Positions 1 through 10,310 of a stretch of DNA of 22,452 bases are shown here, one piece after another (positions within the stretch are counted from its first letter, which is position 1; each line of letters opens with the position of its first letter). The notes under the pieces are model-generated. The model saw only the letters and a program-made list of their open reading frames with translations. It searched no databases and was not told the origin of the DNA. Made by a program: the position numbers and the translations under genes. Origin of the DNA: Candidatus Bathyarchaeia archaeon (GTDB lineage Archaea; Thermoproteota; Bathyarchaeia; TCS64); the NCBI GenBank assembly GCA_050014495.1, contig JBEKDF010000041.1:1-22452 (forward strand). Reading direction: 5' to 3'.

Positions 1-1908
1 GGCGACCTTAACAACCTATACTTCGACGCGACGTCGAGTGTCTATATTCTGATAGGTTTCCTCGCCGTCTCCTCGGTGACGGCGGGGTTTCTGCTTGTTG
101 ACTCAAAGAGGCTGCAGATCGCTTTGGGGGTTGGGCTTTATGTCAGCGCTTTATTTGTGCTGAGTAGTGTGTACCCGGGAACGGCTGCGACGCCTATTCA
201 GGGATTTCTGCTTGCTGCGGGGGTCTCCTATGTTGTCGTCGTGGTCGCCGCCACTTTACTTCCGAAGTTGTTGGGTGGGGTCGGTGGGGATGATAAGGTA
301 AATCTGAGTAGCGTCCTCATTCCCGTGGTCAGTATAGCGAAGAGGAGCCTGAAGAGGAGGAGGCTCAGGTTCATTTTGACACTTGTCTCGCTCACGGTTC
401 TGGTGATGAGTTTCGTCGCCCTCACATCCCTCTCGCAGGGGTATGGCCTAATGATTACGAAGTCAAGCGGGATTGGGGGCTACCAGGGACTCCTTCTACG
501 GGCTTCGACTTGGACGGAGGCTGACCCGACCTTCATCATGTCTGAAAGCTCGGAGGCGAGTTGGCTATTAAAGCAGCCGGAGGTGAGGGGGATCTCTGTA
601 AAGGTTGAGAATGTCCCCCAGCAGAGAGCGATTGCATCAATCGCTGGGAATAGGATCTACTCAATAATAGGAGTGAATGCGGCTAACGAGACACAGATTA
701 TACCCCTCGCGGCAAAGCTTGCGCAGGGGGTGCTACCCGGCCCGGGTGGCGTGGCGTTGAGTATCACCCTCGCCCAGGAGGCGGGGCTTAAGCTCGGTGA
801 TAAGGTGAAGCTTAGGGATGAGACACTCACCCTCGTCGGGTTATTTGATGACTCTGCCTTATCGGGGCTCATCGACCTAGATGGGACTGGTTATATACCT
901 GACAAGTTTGTGAACATTGGTCCGTCGGAGGAAGCGCCGCTCTGGGAGAGGCAATCGACGCTTCCCTCGGAGGCTGCCTTCGTTGACGCCTCGACGGCGA
1001 GCCTCTTCCCTGAACTTGGGGTGACGAGGATTGCCCTGAGGGTAGACTCGGTGGAACAGGATGTCTTCGCGGAGAAGTTGGCTCTGGATAGGGGTTACAA
1101 GACGTGGTCGGTATCCCCCTCGGGGATCGTATACGCTGCACTCGGAAGCTACTTGGAGGGGGAGGGACTCCCATTCATCATTCCTTGGGCGATTGTCGTC
1201 CTAAACGTGGTCGTGACGATGCTGAACTCGCTGTTTGAGAGGAGGCGGGAGATAAACATCCTCAGCTCGGTGGGGCTTAACCCGGCTGAGATAGCGTCGA
1301 TATTTGTCGCTGAGGCATCGATCATGGGCTTCATTGCGGGTGGTCTCGGTTACCTCATGGGACTTGCCTTCTATAGGCTCATGCCTATGCTTGGCCTCGC
1401 CCTTGAGGTCCACCAGAAGGTGTCCGCGGTCTGGGTTCTTGCCGCCATCGGTATCTCTATATCAGCAGTTCTTGTGGGGGCCTTCGTCGCACTGAGGAGC
1501 AGCATGGTTATCACCCCGAGTCTTACTCGAAAGTGGAAGCTCGATGAGGCTTTGGGTGGATTCAACAAGCCATGGGTGGCTCCCGTTCCAATCAAGCTTG
1601 ATGCGGTTGAGGTGGATGGCTTCGTGGAGTACCTTGGGTTGAGGCTCCGGGCATTAGAGGATAACCAGGTTCGGAGGATAGGGCAGTTGAAGGTCGAGTC
1701 TAGGGGGGATGTAAGAGTAGTGTCCTTCATCTATACGGCTTATCAGTCGCCTACAGATAACTTCTATTCGAGGAACTCTCTCTTCGTGGAGCCTGAGGAG
1801 GGCTCTTTTAAGGTGAGGCTTGAGTCGATGGGGTCTCAGGACTCTGCATATGAGACTGGTTCCTTGATTCGCCAGATAGCGATGGAGTGGAGTAACAAGC
1901 CACGCTGA
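1..1908 (+). CDS. Large MacB/FtsX-family ABC transporter permease (5'-truncated by the window edge)
   Basis: The frame is open from base 1 (GDLNNLYFDATSSVYILIGF...). Multiple TM segments, an extracellular MacB-like domain, and the FtsX signature 'LNSLFERRREINILSSVGLNPAEIASIFVAEA'. Confidence 0.88.
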   Translation, partial: GDLNNLYFDATSSVYILIGFLAVSSVTAGFLLVDSKRLQIALGVGLYVSALFVLSSVYPGTAATPIQGFLLAAGVSYVVVVVAATLLPKLLGGVGGDDKVNLSSVLIPVVSIAKRSLKRRRLRFILTLVSLTVLVMSFVALTSLSQGYGLMITKSSGIGGYQGLLLRASTWTEADPTFIMSESSEASWLLKQPEVRGISVKVENVPQQRAIASIAGNRIYSIIGVNAANETQIIPLAAKLAQGVLPGPGGVALSITLAQEAGLKLGDKVKLRDETLTLVGLFDDSALSGLIDLDGTGYIPDKFVNIGPSEEAPLWERQSTLPSEAAFVDASTASLFPELGVTRIALRVDSVEQDVFAEKLALDRGYKTWSVSPSGIVYAALGSYLEGEGLPFIIPWAIVVLNVVVTMLNSLFERRREINILSSVGLNPAEIASIFVAEASIMGFIAGGLGYLMGLAFYRLMPMLGLALEVHQKVSAVWVLAAIGISISAVLVGAFVALRSSMVITPSLTRKWKLDEALGGFNKPWVAPVPIKLDAVEVDGFVEYLGLRLRALEDNQVRRIGQLKVESRGDVRVVSFIYTAYQSPTDNFYSRNSLFVEPEEGSFKVRLESMGSQDSAYETGSLIRQIAMEWSNKPR

Positions 1909-1951
1909 TTTTATCATTGGTCTGATGAAGATAACGTTTCGCGTGGGGGGT

Positions 1952-2686
1952 TCAAGGTTCTTTTTCCGTTTTCTGGGTGATGTTAATTGGGATTGTGCCT
2001 CTTTCTATCTTCTCAACCTTGCCATCCCTCATCCAGACTACGCGGTCGGAGGCCTTGATCATCTTGAGGTCGTGGGTGGCGGCGACTAGTGTGAGGCCTC
2101 GGGTCTTGTTGAGGCCGTGGAGGAGGTCTATGATCTCGGTACCGGTGTTGAGGTCTAGGTTGCCGGTGGGCTCGTCTGCGAGGATTATGGCGGGGTCGTT
2201 GGCTAGGGCGCGTGCGATGGCTACGCGCTGCTGCTGCCCTGCGCTGAGTTGCATTGGTTTGTGGTTGAGTCTCTCGCCGAGGCCGACGCTCTCTAGGAGC
2301 TTCCGCGCCTTTCTTATCCCTTCATCGTGGGGTGTCCCCGCGAAGACTGTGGGGAGGGCGACGTTTTCCAGTGCTGTGAGGATGGATATGAGGTTGAAGC
2401 TTTGGAAGATGTATCCTATGCGTCGGCATCGGAGCCACGCGAGTTCGTAGGCGTCTAGCTTGCTTATATCGACGCTGTCTATGAGGACGCTTCCTCCGGT
2501 TGGGCGGTCTAGGCCTCCTATCATGTTGAAGAGGGTTGTCTTGCCGGAGCCGCTGGGGCCGATTAGGCTCACGTATTCCCCCCTCCCGATGGAGAGGTCT
2601 ACGCCGTCGAGGGCCTTCACAGTCTCTCCGCCAACATCGTAGTGTCTCTTTAGTCCGTTGAGTTCGATCACTGTGTCATAGATCAT
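1952..2686 (-). CDS. ABC transporter ATP-binding protein (LolD/MacB type)
   Basis: Walker A GPSGSGKT, signature LSAGQQQR, Walker B ILADEPTGNLD, H-loop ATHD. ATG at 2686 (MIYDTVIEL) is preferred over TTG 2710 because it overlaps the upstream stop. Confidence 0.95.
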   Translation of the reverse strand: MIYDTVIELNGLKRHYDVGGETVKALDGVDLSIGRGEYVSLIGPSGSGKTTLFNMIGGLDRPTGGSVLIDSVDISKLDAYELAWLRCRRIGYIFQSFNLISILTALENVALPTVFAGTPHDEGIRKARKLLESVGLGERLNHKPMQLSAGQQQRVAIARALANDPAIILADEPTGNLDLNTGTEIIDLLHGLNKTRGLTLVAATHDLKMIKASDRVVWMRDGKVEKIERGTIPINITQKTEKEP

Positions 2687-3281
2687 ATCTGAGTGCCTCC
2701 ACTGGGTCAAGCTTCGATGCCCTGTATGCGGGGTAAATTGTTGCTGTGGTGCTTAGGGCGACTGCTAGGGCTAGGGATGATGCGAATAGTGTCAAGTTTT
2801 GTGCTGCGGGGACTTTGAGTATTATGTCGTAACCCGCTGAGAAGCCGGTGCTGAGGATTGCTGCGATGAGGCCGATGGCGTATCCGATTACTCCGCCGAC
2901 AAGCCCCTGGAGGAGTGCCTCGATTAGGAAGAGTAGTACTATGTGTCTGTCTAGTGCGCCGAGGCACTTCATCGTGCCTATCTCCTTCACCCTCTCCTGG
3001 ACGCTGATTAGCATCGCGTTGGTTATTCCGACGACGCTGACGGTGAGGGCTATGGCTACGAGCCAGTAGTAAGTCGCCTCGACGCTTACGTTTGCGCCTC
3101 CGAGGCTCTCATAGGTCCTGTAGATGGTGTCGGTGAGGAGTAGGCTTGCGTAGAAGCTTAGACCGAGGGCTATTGAGGCGATGTTGAGGGCGCTGCGGTC
3201 GAGGCGTCGGAGAAGCTGGATGTTGCCTAGTCTTAGGGCCTCGGCGTATCCGAGGTGAACCCGCTTATCCCCCGCTTTCAT
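2676..3281 (-). CDS. Small FtsX-like ABC permease (no large extracellular domain)
   Basis: 'NAMLISVQERVKEIGTMKCLGA' and C-terminal 'PAYRASKLDPVEALRY' FtsX motifs, 4 TM segments. Translationally coupled to the ATPase. Confidence 0.92.
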   Translation of the reverse strand: MKAGDKRVHLGYAEALRLGNIQLLRRLDRSALNIASIALGLSFYASLLLTDTIYRTYESLGGANVSVEATYYWLVAIALTVSVVGITNAMLISVQERVKEIGTMKCLGALDRHIVLLFLIEALLQGLVGGVIGYAIGLIAAILSTGFSAGYDIILKVPAAQNLTLFASSLALAVALSTTATIYPAYRASKLDPVEALRYDL

Positions 3282-3306
3282 CTCCTATGGATCGCCCCGC
3301 TGGAGG

Positions 3307-3312
3307 TATAAA
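3307..3312 (-). promoter_or_regulatory. Archaeal TATA box for the small permease/ATPase operon
   Basis: TTTATA on the minus strand 26-31 nt upstream of ATG 3281, consistent with a leaderless transcript. Confidence 0.55.
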
Positions 3313-3385
3313 TGGTGCGGGGGCTAGTTGAGCGTGCGCGCATCACCTGCCTTAGACGACCAGTTTATTTGATATATCTTCGTCT

Positions 3386-3395
3386 GCGCGCGCGC
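3386..3395. repeat. (GC)5 self-complementary tract
   Basis: tGCGCGCGCGCa is a perfect palindrome at 3385-3396. An imperfect sibling GCGTGCGCGC lies at 3332-3341. Confidence 0.95.
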
Positions 3396-3542
3396 ATGTT
3401 CAGGGGAACCGCTAGAAGTCTCCTACAATCCAAATATCCTGATAAGGTCCAAGACCTTAAACTGGACCTAATTAAAGTAGCCAATGAGTCCGATCCCGAG
3501 GTCATATCTCGGATTAGCGATGAACTTAGGGGTTTGTCTTGA
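3396..3542 (+). pseudogene. Possible 3' remnant of an unknown gene (48 aa) starting immediately after the (GC)5 tract
   Basis: MFRGTARSLLQSKYPDKVQDLKLDLIKVANESDPEVISRISDELRGLS*. Amphipathic and protein-like in composition, but with no promoter or RBS and no recognisable family. Confidence 0.3.
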
Positions 3543-3944
3543 TCGTCCATACAATATTATCCTAACCTAGTCTCTAAAGCGTCTATTTCGTCACAGTCCA
3601 TAGAAGTTGCACCAGTGTCCATGGAGTCTCAATTAATCCAACCTGTTCAAGGGTCTTTCATGATATTTCCTCCGGGTCCAAGTCTATAATCCCCCTATGC
3701 ACCTCTTCCAGTAGTCCGAAGCATACCATACAGATCAACCACTTGACCACATTCCTGTATGTGGGCTCTATAGTGGGAGCTCTCTAGGAAATTCTAGAGT
3801 GTAGGAGGGGAGAGGGTAACTTTGGACACTTGGACGAATCTTGTACTAATGGACGGAAATGAGACTCGAAAGAAACATCGGACCCGTTGAAGAATATCTC
3901 TTTGTAGTTGGAAACATTTGGACAAAAAGGGACTCATACCAGAC
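3536..3944. repeat. Inverted arrays of GTCC(A)/(T)GGAC motifs around central hairpins (ori-like element)
   Basis: GTCC at 3545, 3596, 3617, 3676, 3714 on the left. GGAC at 3824, 3832, 3851, 3880, 3920, 3930 on the right. No opposite-orientation copy within either arm. Confidence 0.7.
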
Positions 3945-4048
3945 GTGTGCGCAAATATTTAGCCGAGTGACCCGCGCATGTCAATCAACAAAATTGATCA
4001 GTCAACGTTAAAATAATCTAGAGTAAACTATATTGTAAAATGAAAATT

Positions 4049-4061
4049 AAAAAAGAAAAAA
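4049..4061 (-). terminator. Oligo-T terminator of the MFS-M20 operon
   Basis: Minus strand reads TTTTTTCTTTTTT about 10 nt after the M20 stop at 4072, a typical archaeal intrinsic terminator. Confidence 0.6.
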
Positions 4062-4071
4062 TTTAAGGATT

Positions 4072-5199
4072 TTACAGGCAAATTCTCTTGATGATTTCCC
4101 TGAACATGTTTGTGCCGCGGTCTATTTGCTCCAGGGTAATGAATTCGTCAGGGGCGTGTGCTTGAGCGATGTCTCCTGGTCCGCAGATGAGGGTGGGTAT
4201 TCCAGCTTTTGTGTAGCTGACTGCCTCAGTGTAGTATGGTTCGCCTTCTGGTTTGGTTCCTAGTATATCCATTAGTAGTTTGACTACTTCGCTGTTCTCA
4301 GGTACGTCTAGGGCAACGTTAGTCATCAACCCAACTAGCTCAGCTTCAAATGTGGGATCATCAGCCTTCAGGTATTTGATTATCTGATCGAGCCATCCCT
4401 TGAAGGTCTCCACGTTGTCTTGGCCTGGGATGAGTCTGGCGTTCAGTGTTACATCGCAGTTCGGAGGTATGATGTTTGATTTCAATCCTCCACTAATGAG
4501 GGTTGGTTTGATTGTGCTGTGGCCTAGTAGAGGATAGTCATCTAGGGTCAACATTTTTTGGAGTCTCTTTATCTCCTGTATGAAGTCTGAGGCGTGGAGT
4601 ATTGCGTTGTTGCCCCATTCGGGGCGGCTGCTGTGGGCCGCTTTTCCCTTGAAGCTGACGACGCATCCCCCTGCTCCTTTGTGGGCTCTAACTATTCTCA
4701 TCACACTTGGTTCAGGTATAACTCCGAATCTAGCGTCTTTGGTCGTGACTAGTTTATCCGCGATCACGTTGTCCACGAACCAGCCTCCTGTGTCTTCGCC
4801 AGATGTGAAGACGAGTGTTAGTTGCTTTTTGAAGTTGTTTTTTACATTCTCAGTTACTGCCTGAAGGATACATGCGTCAGGGCCCTTCATGTCGCATGCA
4901 CCTCTGCCATAGAGTTTACCATTCTTCACCTTCGGCTCGAATGGAGCCGTCTCCTTCCATAGTTGAGGGTCTCCTGCGAGAACAACGTCTATGTGGCCAG
5001 ATAAAACGACTCCAGGATCCTTTCCTTCACCGATTTTGGCTATTAAATTAGCTCTATTGGGGGCGACTTCCTGGAGCTGGGTACTTACACCTAGATCCTC
5101 TAAATAGTCTTTTATCCACTTCGCCAATGGTAATTCCTTTGTCGGTGGGCCAGAGGTGTCGAACTTCATCATTTCTTTGGCGATTTCGGCTGCAGGCAT
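4072..5199 (-). CDS. M20 family metallopeptidase/deacylase (ArgE/DapE-like)
   Basis: Motifs SGHIDVV, YGRGACDMKG, GED (usually EE), EPS, GKAAHSS and C-terminal AHAPDE. Confidence 0.92.
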   Translation of the reverse strand: MPAAEIAKEMMKFDTSGPPTKELPLAKWIKDYLEDLGVSTQLQEVAPNRANLIAKIGEGKDPGVVLSGHIDVVLAGDPQLWKETAPFEPKVKNGKLYGRGACDMKGPDACILQAVTENVKNNFKKQLTLVFTSGEDTGGWFVDNVIADKLVTTKDARFGVIPEPSVMRIVRAHKGAGGCVVSFKGKAAHSSRPEWGNNAILHASDFIQEIKRLQKMLTLDDYPLLGHSTIKPTLISGGLKSNIIPPNCDVTLNARLIPGQDNVETFKGWLDQIIKYLKADDPTFEAELVGLMTNVALDVPENSEVVKLLMDILGTKPEGEPYYTEAVSYTKAGIPTLICGPGDIAQAHAPDEFITLEQIDRGTNMFREIIKRICL

Positions 5200-5200
5200 G

Positions 5201-6355
5201 TCACTTTAGCTCCGTGCTTCTAGATTCTTTGACTAGCCACGATGAGATTAGGCACACTATGATTCCAATTTCGAGCCAAGCAGTGACCGAGAGGGGGTTT
5301 CCGGTTTGTGACACAAGGAACGTCGCTATGAAGGGCGTGAAGCCTCCGAAGATGCCGACCGCGAGTTGGTATGTGAATGATACCCCCGTGTAGCCGACAT
5401 CTGTGGGGAAGAATTCAGCCATACATGAGGCGTATTGGCCATTCATCATAGAGAACAGTGAGTAGGCGATTATTAGCGAGAGGACGACGTAGTAGAAGTT
5501 GCCTGAGGACATCAGCCATAGCGCGCGCGCAGAGAAGATAAGGGCTCCGAAGGCCCAGGTCCAGATGCATGTCGAGTAGGGTATCTTGCCGAACGTGTAT
5601 GCGTAGGTCATTCCATACGTTCCAATAGTATAAGTTAGGATGGTCGCACCCATTACTAGGCCTAGTGAGAGCAGTACCTGACGTGGGTAATTCATGCATA
5701 GGTTTACGACTGGGATTCCTTTTGGCTTCGTGGCACTCGGCTGTGCCTTTTTCGTTGGCTCAGTCACGCCGAATCTGATTCCAAGTGCAACGAGCGCTAT
5801 GGCGACACCCACGAAGAAGGCGTATCTCCAACCATATGCAGAGAAATCAGCAGGCGCCATAACTGTGGCCAAAATGCCGACGACGGCGCTGCCTAGGGGG
5901 AGTCCCTGAGCCATTTGTGCGATGGATACGTAGAAGCCCCTTTTCTTGGCTGGTGCGTTCTCGGCGGTGATGCTAATACCTCCGCCAAATTCTCCACCCA
6001 ACGCTAAGCCCTGAACCATCCTTATGATGACAAGTATAACGGTTGACCAGATGCCAATCTGTGCATAAGTTGGCATCAGACCCATTGCACCGGAGGTGGC
6101 AGCCATCATCAAGATGGTTATGATCAGTGTGTCCTTGCGACCGAGGCCCCTGTCGCTTAATGCTCCAAAGATTATTCCACCTAATGGCCTAAAGAGGAAG
6201 CCAACGGCATAGATTGCGAAGAGGTAGAGAAGCGACGGTATTGGGTCTTTCGATGGGAAGAATGTTGGACCGATGATGACCGCCAGGGTACCCATCAGCC
6301 CAAAATCGAAGAACTCTAGTCCTGTGCCGATCGCAGCAGCAATGGCTGTGTACAA
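5201..6355 (-). CDS. MFS transporter, MHS (metabolite:H+ symporter) family; probably degenerate (internal deletion, native start lost)
   Basis: GTGLEFFDFG, RPLGGIIFGALSDRGLGRK, RMVQGLALGGEFGG, GWRYAF and AEFFP motifs. The second DRxGRR loop and TM9 are absent. The frame stays open upstream of TTG 6355 with no ATG/GTG. Confidence 0.85.
   Translation of the reverse strand: MYTAIAAAIGTGLEFFDFGLMGTLAVIIGPTFFPSKDPIPSLLYLFAIYAVGFLFRPLGGIIFGALSDRGLGRKDTLIITILMMAATSGAMGLMPTYAQIGIWSTVILVIIRMVQGLALGGEFGGGISITAENAPAKKRGFYVSIAQMAQGLPLGSAVVGILATVMAPADFSAYGWRYAFFVGVAIALVALGIRFGVTEPTKKAQPSATKPKGIPVVNLCMNYPRQVLLSLGLVMGATILTYTIGTYGMTYAYTFGKIPYSTCIWTWAFGALIFSARALWLMSSGNFYYVVLSLIIAYSLFSMMNGQYASCMAEFFPTDVGYTGVSFTYQLAVGIFGGFTPFIATFLVSQTGNPLSVTAWLEIGIIVCLISSWLVKESRSTELK
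5521..5530. repeat. (GC)5 tract inside the MFS gene at the apparent deletion junction
   Basis: GCGCGCGCGC, translated on the minus strand as S-ARA-L between TM8 and the end of TM9. Confidence 0.95.
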
Positions 6356-6391
6356 TGCAACTCTTTCTGCCTTTTTATCTGTAGCTGGAGT

Positions 6392-6400
6392 CGCGCGCGC
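6392..6400. repeat. 9-nt CG-alternating tract at the 5' end of the MFS reading frame
   Basis: CGCGCGCGC directly precedes TPATDKKAERVALYTAIAAAIG on the minus strand. Confidence 0.95.
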
Positions 6401-6492
6401 AATGATACTTGGGCTGGTCTCAGTTATCCAGCTGATACGAGAGAGGGATAAGCGTTAATTTCAACCACCCCCTTTCACTCTGGAGTGCCCCA

Positions 6493-7200
6493 TTGTCGGA
6501 GAAGATAATAGGTATACTCGGTGGAATGGGCCCTGAGACTACTGCAGATCTCTACATGAGGATAATTAGGGCCACCCCAGCTAAGAGGGATCAGGACCAC
6601 CCGCGCGTCATCATTTATAGCAACTCGAAAGTCCCCGACAGAACCGCGGCCATATTGGGAACGGGACCGAGCCCGCTGCCAGAGCTTATACGAGCGGGGA
6701 AGAGGCTTGAGGAGGCAGGCGCTGACTTCATAATAATCCCATGCAATACCGCCCACTACTTCATTGACCCACTCCAGAAGGAGCTGAGAATTCCTATTCT
6801 CAACATGATAAAGCTTGCTGCAGAACGGGGAAATAACCTCTATCCAAGAATTAAGAAGGTTGGAATCCTAGCGACAGATGGGACGCTGAAGAGTGACCTG
6901 TATACCTACGCCTACGGAAAAGTTGGGGTTGAGATCCTTCAACCAACACCGGAAAAGCAAGTTGAGGTAATGAAGGCGATTTATCTATGCATAAAGGCGG
7001 GTAACCTAATTGACGGGGGCCTCCTGCTTCGAAACGTAGCGAACGACCTCATAGCCAGGGGGGCAGAGATGATAATCTGTGGCTGCACGGAGGTAAGCCT
7101 CGTCCTAAAGGAGGAGGACCTAACTGTGCCGATTCTCGATCCGCTTCAGATCCTCGCCGAAGCCGCTGTATCAGAGGCGCTCTCTAAGGAGCATGGTTGA
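6493..7200 (+). CDS. Aspartate/glutamate racemase family (RacX/YgeA-like amino-acid racemase)
   Basis: N-terminal IGILGGMGP and both catalytic cysteines (PCNTAH and GCTE). Confidence 0.95.
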   Translation: MSEKIIGILGGMGPETTADLYMRIIRATPAKRDQDHPRVIIYSNSKVPDRTAAILGTGPSPLPELIRAGKRLEEAGADFIIIPCNTAHYFIDPLQKELRIPILNMIKLAAERGNNLYPRIKKVGILATDGTLKSDLYTYAYGKVGVEILQPTPEKQVEVMKAIYLCIKAGNLIDGGLLLRNVANDLIARGAEMIICGCTEVSLVLKEEDLTVPILDPLQILAEAAVSEALSKEHG

Positions 7201-7263
7201 CTGATGGGGAAGAGAAGCGAAGTAATGGAGTCGCGTGAGGTTATCATTCCATACGCAAGGGCG

Positions 7264-7698
7264 ATGCTAACTACTGCCTCCGCTAAATTCGAGTTCTACT
7301 ATCCGAAGGGGATCAGGTGGAGTTGCAAGCGTTGTGGGGCCTGCTGCCGCGACGCATCACATCGTCCAAGGAGGATACTGCTCCTACCATCAGACATAAC
7401 GAGGCTGGAGGGAGTGGGGGAGAAAGACTTCATGGAGAGGGTAAAAGGTGAAGAGCCTTATATAGCTGAGATGAAGAAGATGGGCGGTGCCTGTGTCAAG
7501 CTGACAGAAAAGGGTTGCATGGTCTACCCCAGCCGTGCACTCCTGTGCAGGATGTATCCGTTTTGGGTCGAAAGGGAGGGGAGAAGCCTTGAGGTGATGG
7601 TTGATACGAGATGTCTAGGATTTGGTCACGGCCCGGAGCTAAAGGAAGACTACTTCAGGGACCACCTCACAATCGCTCTCAAAGAACGGGGAGATTGA
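7264..7698 (+). CDS. YkgJ family cysteine cluster (CxxCxxCC) protein
   Basis: WSCKRCGACC ... CVKL ... CMVYPSRALLCRMYPF ... C. The start may be ATG 7204, 7225 or 7264. Confidence 0.88.
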   Translation: MLTTASAKFEFYYPKGIRWSCKRCGACCRDASHRPRRILLLPSDITRLEGVGEKDFMERVKGEEPYIAEMKKMGGACVKLTEKGCMVYPSRALLCRMYPFWVEREGRSLEVMVDTRCLGFGHGPELKEDYFRDHLTIALKERGD

Positions 7699-9990: not shown

Positions 9991-10310
9991 AAACAGATAG
10001 AGGCGCCCTAGCGAGTTAATTCTTGTAAAAATCACAGAAAAATGCAGACCATATCGACTCAACTAGTCTTTTATCCCAGTGGTTTCGTGTTTTCAATACT
10101 TTTGCATTTATAACATCTCGATAAAATTATTGACAGAAGTTTAACAAGTCGTTATGAAAGCTGAAACGACAAAGATTGATGATAGGTAAATCGCCTTTAT
10201 TGTTTTTATGCGCACGCGTTAGGGTCTTAAGTATTTCACCCGTCTCTCTGAGCATCTCAGACTCCTAGAAGCCTTAAAAAACGCCCTCGAGCGTTATCTG
10301 GTGAATCGTC

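Follow-up and report, generated by a model that had tools for sequence, protein, structure and literature searches.

HIP1 of cyanobacteria, an iterated and over-represented GC-rich palindromic octamer, lies in intact genes. Among end-joining systems, Ku-LigD repair adds one or a few bases without stereotype, while the filler written by TdT is GC-rich. Break rejoining in Ku-less archaea is poorly known, and the scar described here bears on this question. For Saccharolobus, passages of PMC12019639 report that PriSL acts as a terminal transferase, lets ends anneal over 2-4 GC pairs and mends breaks in vivo. Microhomology-mediated end joining of the Haloferax type, as treated in part of PMC12281630, provided the comparison class for our joint test. 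In phage defence, the reverse transcriptase (RT) DRT3b is described in sections of PMC13174585 as performing protein-templated poly(dCdA) synthesis, with free DNA as its product.

Here, we describe short GCGCGCGC-type runs that lie at deleted, moved or captured DNA in the genome of a peat archaeon (G000) and are mostly missing in the parent sequences. The presence of GC scars at joints is real, and they are probably the mark of an undescribed scar-writing end-joining route. No earlier description of such a scar was found in open-licence PMC/bioRxiv texts; the supplements of PMC12019639 contain lists of repair junctions, which may affect how novel the scar is.

Alternating runs at breakpoints in the window

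The window is a stretch of 22,452 nucleotides from a Candidatus Bathyarchaeia archaeon. Pure GC-alternating runs of at least 9 nt occur at 3386-3395, 5521-5530 and 6392-6400 and nowhere else in it, at the same coordinates as in the first-pass annotation. Their rarity by chance was also confirmed, with an order-1 Markov null averaging 0.08 such runs per window and never exceeding 2 in 300 draws. All three fall inside 3 kb, as had been pointed out, but this clustering is unremarkable, as 59 of the 389 spacings between neighbouring runs across the genome are 300 nt or shorter. The tracts listed earlier as imperfect GC runs exist but are better called purine/pyrimidine-alternating (RY) runs, at 3332-3343, 3385-3399, 3943-3953 and 3973-3981. 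The shift from GC-rich to AT-rich DNA was seen again, from a GC content of 0.57 to 0.42-0.45 past 3400. The features of this region are as follows, with strand given where assigned.

1..3332, end of a relocated ABC-transporter block, which relatives have in another context
1952-2710, ABC ATPase inside this block
2676-3281, FtsX-type permease inside this block
3332..3343, scar 1, RY run GCGTGCGCGCAT, where homology to relatives stops
3344..3384, 41-nt piece separating scars 1 and 2
3385..3399, scar 2, RY run with a pure (GC)5 core at 3386-3395, where the orphan fragment starts
3398..3935, AT-rich orphan fragment, decayed, without an intact frame
3943..3953, probable scar, RY run ACGTGTGCGCA, 8 nt past the end of the fragment's homology, parent placement inexact
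3973..3981, possible scar, RY run CGCGCATGT
4072..5199, minus strand, M20 deacylase of the ArgE/DapE family, apparently intact
5201..6390, minus strand, MHS-type MFS transporter, broken
5521..5530, (GC)5 scar within the internal deletion of the MFS gene
6392..6401, scar CGCGCGCGC(A), from sister comparison
6402..6458, plus strand, final codons of a longer gene for a membrane protein, found ahead of the racemase in relatives
6493..7200, plus strand, amino-acid racemase of the Asp/Glu family, intact

As had been proposed, each perfect run sits at a discontinuity, namely two deletion joints and the start of the orphan fragment. A collinear sister lineage has 96 letters against 6 in the window at 5521-5530, and 402 letters against 14 at 6392-6405; therefore, these two runs are deletion joints. 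At 5521-5530, 9 nt stand for 99 nt of an intact, 81%-identical MFS allele, with Ala-Arg-Ala in place of 33 codons; judged by this allele, about 2 nt of the run could be parent-derived, or as many as 4 by the sister alignment. The MFS gene has also lost its start and first ~29 codons, and 6392-6400 is, judging from the sister alignment, the deletion joint that removed this start and more. The orphan fragment is homologous to G016 and to contig C4 of this genome from 3398-3399 onward, beside the run at 3386-3395, and it resembles two sites in G016, as well as C4:94347, at 66-71%. For the 41-nt piece, no source was found in this genome or in the 15 loci searched. The final ~12 nt of the ABC block repeat the stop region of a neighbouring gene that is whole on contig C1, which rules out a gene truncation at 3332 and leaves it as the end of the block. 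No run is present at the joint that the departed block left on C1.

Genome-wide excess and association with joints

The genome contains 459 pure (GC)n runs of at least 8 nt. Those of 8, 9 and 10 nt number 192, 144 and 111, compared with 58, 10 and 4 in a Markov null, an excess with a plateau at 8-10 nt, and only 12 are longer; even with the bases that match a parent counted in, the pure GC core ends abruptly at 10 nt (4 twelve-mers vs 111 ten-mers). Although long ORFs make up 71% of the genome, they hold just 38 of the 267 runs of at least 9 nt. Of 1387 paralogue alignment ends, 77 lie no more than 3 nt from a run vs 4.6 expected (IS ends counted in), and after removal of IS ends, an RY/GC scar was found at 37 of 240 abrupt paralogue ends vs a null rate of 1.85%. 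These data indicate that runs follow breakpoints throughout the genome, as the first-pass annotation had predicted from the window. A universal GC filler at joints was not borne out, with 203 of the 240 abrupt ends free of a scar. Both flanks fall within one protein for 6 of the 459 runs, comprising five deletions of 100-540 nt and one ordinary coding sequence, with no clean insertion among the six, while all 70 control sites for this flank test were collinear. Both the window comparisons and these genome-wide tests place runs at joints of non-contiguous sequences.

Composition and probable origin of the filler

Comparison with parents was possible on 45 of the 918 sides and for six of the 459 runs; the parents used are 80-100% similar and do not represent ancestors. 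On 39 of the 45 sides the parent supplies 0-2 nt (0, 1 and 2 nt on 13, 20 and 6 sides), leaving bases that are missing from both parents. The joints therefore do not fit microhomology-mediated end joining, in which more than 2 nt are present in both parents and nothing is inserted. The collinear DNA of relatives lacks the tracts.

The filler is RY-alternating DNA with a GC core, in which ~80% of purine slots are G and ~80% of pyrimidine slots are C. Counts outside long ORFs are 140 for GCGCACGC, 12 for GCGCCCGC and 36 for GCGCTCGC, and inside long ORFs they are 33, 33 and 44. Because this bias contrasts with ordinary CpG divergence (135 transitions vs 57 transversions), the alternation is not simple decay. 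The long RY runs reach 24 nt, and 226 of 255 are distinct. Their local-template matches are at chance level (35 vs 29.8), and their 76 palindromes are within the shuffled range (mean 64.8, maximum 80); copies of nearby flanks or fold-backs were not detected in this templated-insertion test. A hairpin/P-nucleotide origin was rejected, with complementary flank pairs at 58 of 146 vs 65 expected and 43 of 78 vs 37. The earlier reading of the inserted GCGC as non-templated therefore stands as to the lack of a local template, but the insert is RY-alternating around a GC core and not pure (GC)n.

We consider it likely that the runs at joints, being mostly not parental, are filler added by a template-independent polymerase so that any two ends can anneal. 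In such a route, the break would be resected, RY-alternating, GC-rich tails would extend the 3' ends, and their self-complementary GC parts would pair over the 8-10 nt core. The A/T-richer edges would then be filled in, followed by flap trimming and nick ligation, with a putative role in trimming and sealing for a second Fen1-ligase gene pair.

An IS5/IS1182-like element with the same motif

The genome encodes an IS5/IS1182-like element of 1.26-1.32 kb, which is bounded by terminal inverted repeats and accompanied by MITEs. Its transposase combines DUF772 with DDE_Tnp_1, and its insertion apparently duplicates a 6-bp GCGCGC target (hexamers identical in 16 of 19 by eye). The element falls below the cut-off of every named IS family model (IS1182, 91 bits vs 270; IS5_4, 65 vs 140). 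The three mismatched flank hexamers all differ by transitions, showing that some A/T variants are later than formation. Across 45 distinct ends at 46 loci in records of Bathyarchaeia or an unnamed archaeon, the ends adjoin RCGCGC at 80-89% per position. Close homologues are present in 12 of 17 genus genomes, and no plasmid relative was found.

It is conceivable, though improbable, that the runs stem from this element and its MITEs, as their target sites, as footprints left by excision and as scars of adjacent deletions. Besides the motif at its ends and its spread in the genus, this would fit the finding that the sole GCGCGCGC, the only 8-mer, of the scar-free G001 adjoins an IS remnant, and IS movement at deletion centres is documented in parts of PMC11708052. 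However, only 29 of the 459 runs adjoin an IS-like end, and an element requiring GCGCGC cannot cut parents with 0-2 matching nt. A retained 6-nt duplication predicts a 12-nt peak, which is missing, and none of five informative joints, a small sample, has a clean footprint. Both flanks could be placed for 2 of 19 elements, with the parental sites 420 nt apart or on separate contigs, while for five further elements one flank was placed and the other did not continue. Moreover, no transposase match was found in the scar-rich, incomplete genomes G013, G015 and G003, and mixed runs such as GCATACGCATGCATGCGCGCGCAT are left unaccounted for. Of 15 IS-split targets rebuilt by hand, five extend to 11-12 nt. 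Most likely, the element does not make the scars but inserts into them, as GCGCGC targets already in place within dispensable DNA.

Distribution of the trait and candidate writers

The trait was found in 22 of 24 genomes of the family and in 0 of 8 from the order's other families. It follows the family tree, in agreement with the expectation that related genomes would bear the same scars. The GCGCGC-targeting IS and a Ku/LigD operon lie elsewhere in the genome, and neither follows the trait.

This operon, complete and located at C3:63436-67463, encodes a LigD polymerase, Ku, a ligase-phosphoesterase fusion and DUF72. Since Ku is also present in 14 of 17 other genomes of the genus, and LigD polymerase has terminal transferase activity according to passages of PMC3333859, the Ku-LigD system of this genome might itself, with an atypical choice of nucleotides, be the writer. 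This is hardly probable, as the operon genes occur in the run-poor G001, G010 and G018 (0, 1 and 6 nine-mers) and were not found in G021 (182 nine-mer matches; one scaffold, 92% complete), G022 (82) and G023 (30). The same length plateau is seen in G021, over 350 kb selected around runs already known. Family members without Ku/LigD thus carry the trait, while a Ku/LigD-bearing pair is without it; co-occurrence with the trait was not seen for Ku over 33 genomes plus 5 or for LigD polymerase over 41 genomes.

The first-pass annotation had proposed a search for co-occurring AEP/PrimPol, polymerase, RT or ligase genes, and none of those profiled follows the trait. Over the same 41 genomes, a 439-aa PriS-like gene on contig C20 was rejected as writer with full-length copies in this genome and four others, as were extra PF01896 copies (G021 has PriS alone), PolB2 (found in the scar-free G001, G010, G028 and G030) and a second ATP-dependent ligase (present order-wide). 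Neither an RT nor a C5 methyltransferase was found in this genome, which is 96% complete. No primase lies beside its three RadA/RadB genes, neighbours being judged by eye, and only one RadA-like gene has a polymerase next to it, as part of the PolB2 pair. PriS of two scar-free genomes differs in nine columns, none of them diagnostic because the two genomes are sisters and represent one loss event.

A little less probable than the Ku-LigD reading is patching by pre-made GC-rich oligonucleotides or by copying of a ~10-nt RNA/DNA splint, in place of end-by-end tailing. The sharp end of the pure core at 10 nt would suit it, as would GC cores of 8-10 nt numbering 114 vs 34 in slot-shuffled runs and parent matches of at least 1 nt somewhat over an in-register null (32 vs 22 of 45 sides). 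However, a fixed template would not give such diverse RY edges, and the genome has no detected RT. A pre-existing fragile Z-DNA/microhomology site, or a library or assembly artefact, is a reading already largely refuted and barely credible: GC alternation promotes Z-DNA (part of PMC4060949) and the evidence comes from contigs, not raw reads, but the runs are missing in parents, the trait matches the family tree, and independent contigs span the three tracts, with no differences in those of sequencing runs X4 and X9, which were not marked as source (short pieces came from X10, X12, X14 and X17, of which X10 and X12 cross no tract). None of the three outcomes that the first-pass annotation had named as refuting its reading was obtained.

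Returning to the template-independent polymerase, by analogy with Saccharolobus we tentatively nominate PriSL, the replicative primase, in a form particular to the lineage as the writer, a doubtful assignment. Somewhat better placed, but still speculative, is the idea that the polymerase active site, and not a nucleic acid, enforces RY alternation, which would yield universal self-complementary tails, drive gene loss and foreign-DNA capture in the family, and have allowed a transposon clade to evolve to land in scars.

Significance and comparison with known systems

A scar readable in sequence makes repair events countable and mappable in uncultured lineages, and RY-alternating tails offer a sharp assay for the enzyme hunt. 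If a protein enforces the alternation, this would be the second protein-directed DNA sequence after DRT3b, as described in the sections cited above, and the first found in genome maintenance. An enzyme able to render any pair of ends compatible could also be of use in cloning, and an IS that targets scars would be homing to DNA already proven dispensable.

The scar resembles PriSL end joining in Saccharolobus islandicus in Ku-free archaeal repair, terminal transfer and annealing on a few GC pairs (passages of PMC12019639 and PMC3333859). The insertions described there, however, are mostly 1-2 bp, C beside C or G, and no alternating filler of 8-20 nt was found in those passages. Ku-LigD NHEJ of bacteria and Methanocella likewise seals deletions without long homology and can make untemplated AEP additions, and its operon is present in this genome, but gene presence does not track the scar. 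TdT, Pol mu and Pol theta filler (N nucleotides, templated insertions) also consists of new joint bases that can make their own microhomology, whereas the scars here are RY-alternating, self-complementary and without a flanking template. DRT3b shares the synthesis of alternating dinucleotide DNA without a nucleic-acid template, but, in the sections of PMC13174585 cited, its DNA is an RT product, while here no RT was found and the filler sits in chromosome joints. DDE insertion sequences of the IS5/IS1182 type with fixed targets are similar to the element here, which covers 29 of 459 runs and stays below named-model cut-offs. Finally, HIP1 is similar as an over-represented GC-rich palindrome, but the runs described here avoid long ORFs and mark joints.

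GC-alternating runs are in excess in the genome and recur in its family

The assembly that carries the window (G000; 3.1 Mb, 96% complete) contains 1901, 481, 186, 192, 144, 111, 5 and 4 pure GC-alternating runs of 5 to 12 nt, respectively, plus three longer ones, whereas AT, AC and AG runs drop geometrically with length. An order-3 Markov model of the genome predicts 58, 10 and 4 runs at 8, 9 and 10 nt, and the top over-represented octamer is GCGCGCGC (1024 occurrences on both strands vs 148 expected). The perfect runs of the window (3386-3395, 5521-5530 and 6392-6400), of which the first-pass annotation had estimated well under one per 22 kb by chance, are likewise in excess, with three runs of at least 9 nt against 0.08 expected. 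After the GC runs, the most enriched octamers belong to a dispersed repeat (core GGATAAGGCTATGGCCCC, variant TCAGGTGGAAGTGAGGATAAG) found on many contigs, frequently at their ends.

In raw hit counts, GCGCGCGCG occurred in 22 of 24 further members of the family, with as many as 429 hits, and in none of eight genomes of the order that belong to other families; its counts ranged from 0 to 17 in eight more distant genomes. The same plateau (28, 33, 17 and 6 runs at 8-11 nt) was observed in 350 kb of the related genome G021 picked around known hits. A library artefact is unlikely, because the occurrence of GCGCGCGCG follows the tree, which an artefact would not. The related worry about the assembly was eased by Logan contigs, rather than raw reads, of two sequencing runs, neither flagged as the source: those of X4 cross all three runs and those of X9 the first two, with zero differences. 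The window sequence is present in peat and wetland metagenomes.

Runs mark breakpoints

The window's runs had been proposed to mark DNA breakpoints, and genome-wide analysis supported such an association. Paralogue alignment ends lay within 3 nt of a run in 77 of 1387 cases (4.6 expected), and 37 of 240 abrupt paralogue ends carried a scar (null 1.85%), which also indicates that most joints are without one. ORFs of at least 200 aa, which make up 71% of the genome, contained 38 of the 267 runs of at least 9 nt. Among 918 run sides, 29 adjoin an insertion sequence (IS)-like end, and a clean paralogue is available for 45 more. The continuation of this paralogue, taken as the parent, matched the run by 0, 1 and 2 nt at 13, 20 and 6 of the 45 sides and by 3, 4, 5, 7, 10 and 10 nt at the remaining six, the longest being copies of the joint itself. 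Both flanks fell in one protein for 6 of 459 runs, five of which are deletions spanning about 100-540 nt and the sixth a normal coding match, while all 70 control sites were collinear.

Within the window, the suggested internal deletion at 5521-5530 was confirmed: the MFS transporter is 33 codons short of the intact protein P0002 (87% identical), and in DNA, 9 nt take the place of 99 nt found in an intact allele (L046), where a single G on the left and a single C on the right can be attributed to the parents. A 10.6-kb contig of sequencing run X19 is 90-98% alike and collinear with the window over 4072-7600, but carries 96 letters opposite the window's 6 (5522-5527) and 402 opposite its 14 (6392-6405); the former joint is also visible against X18, and the 402 letters may contain a separate joint. 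At 3332, homology to five relatives ends at the same base in all. Since the gene beyond is intact on contig C1 and an approximately 4.7-kb ABC block is absent there without any run, 3332 represents the end of a relocated ABC block. It is followed by a 41-nt piece whose source was not found, the 3386-3395 run and a decayed fragment with homologues starting at 3398-3399, so this run does mark the start of the orphan fragment, as first noted.

In addition, a purine/pyrimidine-alternating (RY) run, TATGCGCACGCGT (10207-10219), lies 13 nt ahead of 10233, where homology resumes, in a 188-nt gap opposite ~2.5 kb in G002 and G012, and is probably a further scar. In G021, at L095:9631-9693, a run adjoins a 55-nt piece that resembles a portion of a tRNA gene and has a second copy, 96% like it, at another place.

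Composition of the probable filler

Among one-change variants of GCGCGCGC, only transitions were enriched. Outside long ORFs, GCGCACGC, GCGCCCGC and GCGCTCGC occurred 140, 12 and 36 times, a skew exceeding ordinary CpG divergence (135:57). RY runs of at least 13 nt and at least 60% GC numbered 259, and long ORFs contained none of 222 of these. The dinucleotide steps of the 259 runs (GC 2116, CG 1912, CA/TG 450, AC/GT 333, AT 188, TA 114) indicate that G follows C about as often as it follows T (about 80%). The long RY runs are varied in sequence, with palindromes not above chance and no local template detected. A/T lies mainly at the edges, where some of the bases are parental ones that alternate by coincidence, and the pure core accumulates at 8-10 nt. 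This anatomy would fit two tails paired via their GC parts.

An insertion sequence targeting GCGCGC

A 1266-nt element (C61:6043-7308) encodes a DUF772 and DDE_Tnp_1 transposase, for which none of the named IS models passed. Its 19 paired copies and MITEs in four genomes (G000, G002, G012 and G016) have a GCGCGC-type hexamer at both ends, identical in 16, and the element is best read as a site-specific IS with a 6-bp duplication. This IS5/IS1182-like clade has MITEs of 290-490 nt and is specific for RCGCGC. The end motif followed by an RCGCGC-type target was found at 45 loci in Bathyarchaeia-titled records and one in another archaeal record among the first 80 of 120 loci listed; among the matches listed, the combination was confined to Bathyarchaeia-type records. 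Some targets in other Bathyarchaeia are bare hexamers.

A less likely reading is that the runs derive from this IS, for example as excision footprints; in its favour, the single GCGCGCGC of the scar-free genome G001 adjoins an IS remnant. However, the IS cannot give runs to parents without the motif, its footprints would show a peak at 12 nt, and at L119 the IS lies inside the joint of a 420-nt deletion for which the parent sequence lacks a run. These points argue against an IS origin, although the case is weakened by there being only two elements with both flanks placed and by IS copies frequently being left unassembled.

Candidate enzymes for the proposed end-joining scar

A full archaeal Ku-LigD operon (C3:63436-67463) with a split polymerase, a ligase-phosphoesterase fusion and DUF72 is present, and Ku occurs in 14 of the 17 other genomes of the genus. 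Ku-LigD is unlikely to be the scar writer, being complete in scar-free G001 and G010 and not seen in scar-rich G021, G022 and G023; further candidate genes were each rejected on similar genome comparison. In the PriS tree, the sister genomes G001 and G010 fall within a set of genomes that bear scars, which suggests that the trait is ancestral in this section of the family, with a single loss. Saccharolobus PriSL is reported to perform terminal transfer, anneal ends on 2-4 GC pairs and promote break repair in vivo (PMC12019639; PMC3333859), and by this analogy PriSL would be the best prior for the scar-writing enzyme.

Other repair-related genes were also observed. The gene for a second Fen1, 47% like the one on C8, overlaps a second, order-wide ATP-dependent DNA ligase (C22:11682-14295), a possible trim-and-seal repair module. 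A PolB2-type polymerase adjoins a degenerate RadA-like gene (C8:32880-36041), and two full-length RadA paralogues (C29:8777-9928 and C10:67596-68582) are 41% identical. A PriS-like protein of 439 aa that is extended at its C-terminus (C20:26047-27366), encoded beside an oligosaccharyltransferase-like gene, is full length here and in 4 of the 17 other genomes of the genus. An integrated element (C53:5924-7864; pieces on C13 and C22) carries integrase-like and small primase-like genes.

Comparison with known systems

A search of the open-licence literature found no published description of an RY/GC joint scar, and the scar is probably a new form of end-joining filler, its mechanism being inferred. 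The window contributes a comparison with a collinear sister, the rules of the RY alternation, tests telling IS from scars and grounds for excluding several candidate genes. In prokaryotes, patterns of the GC8 and RY12 types are reported to be generally under-represented (PMC4060949). In contrast to the scars, joints described in Haloferax arise from pre-existing microhomology (PMC12281630), and in DRT3b dinucleotide alternation is reported to be enforced by a protein (PMC13174585).
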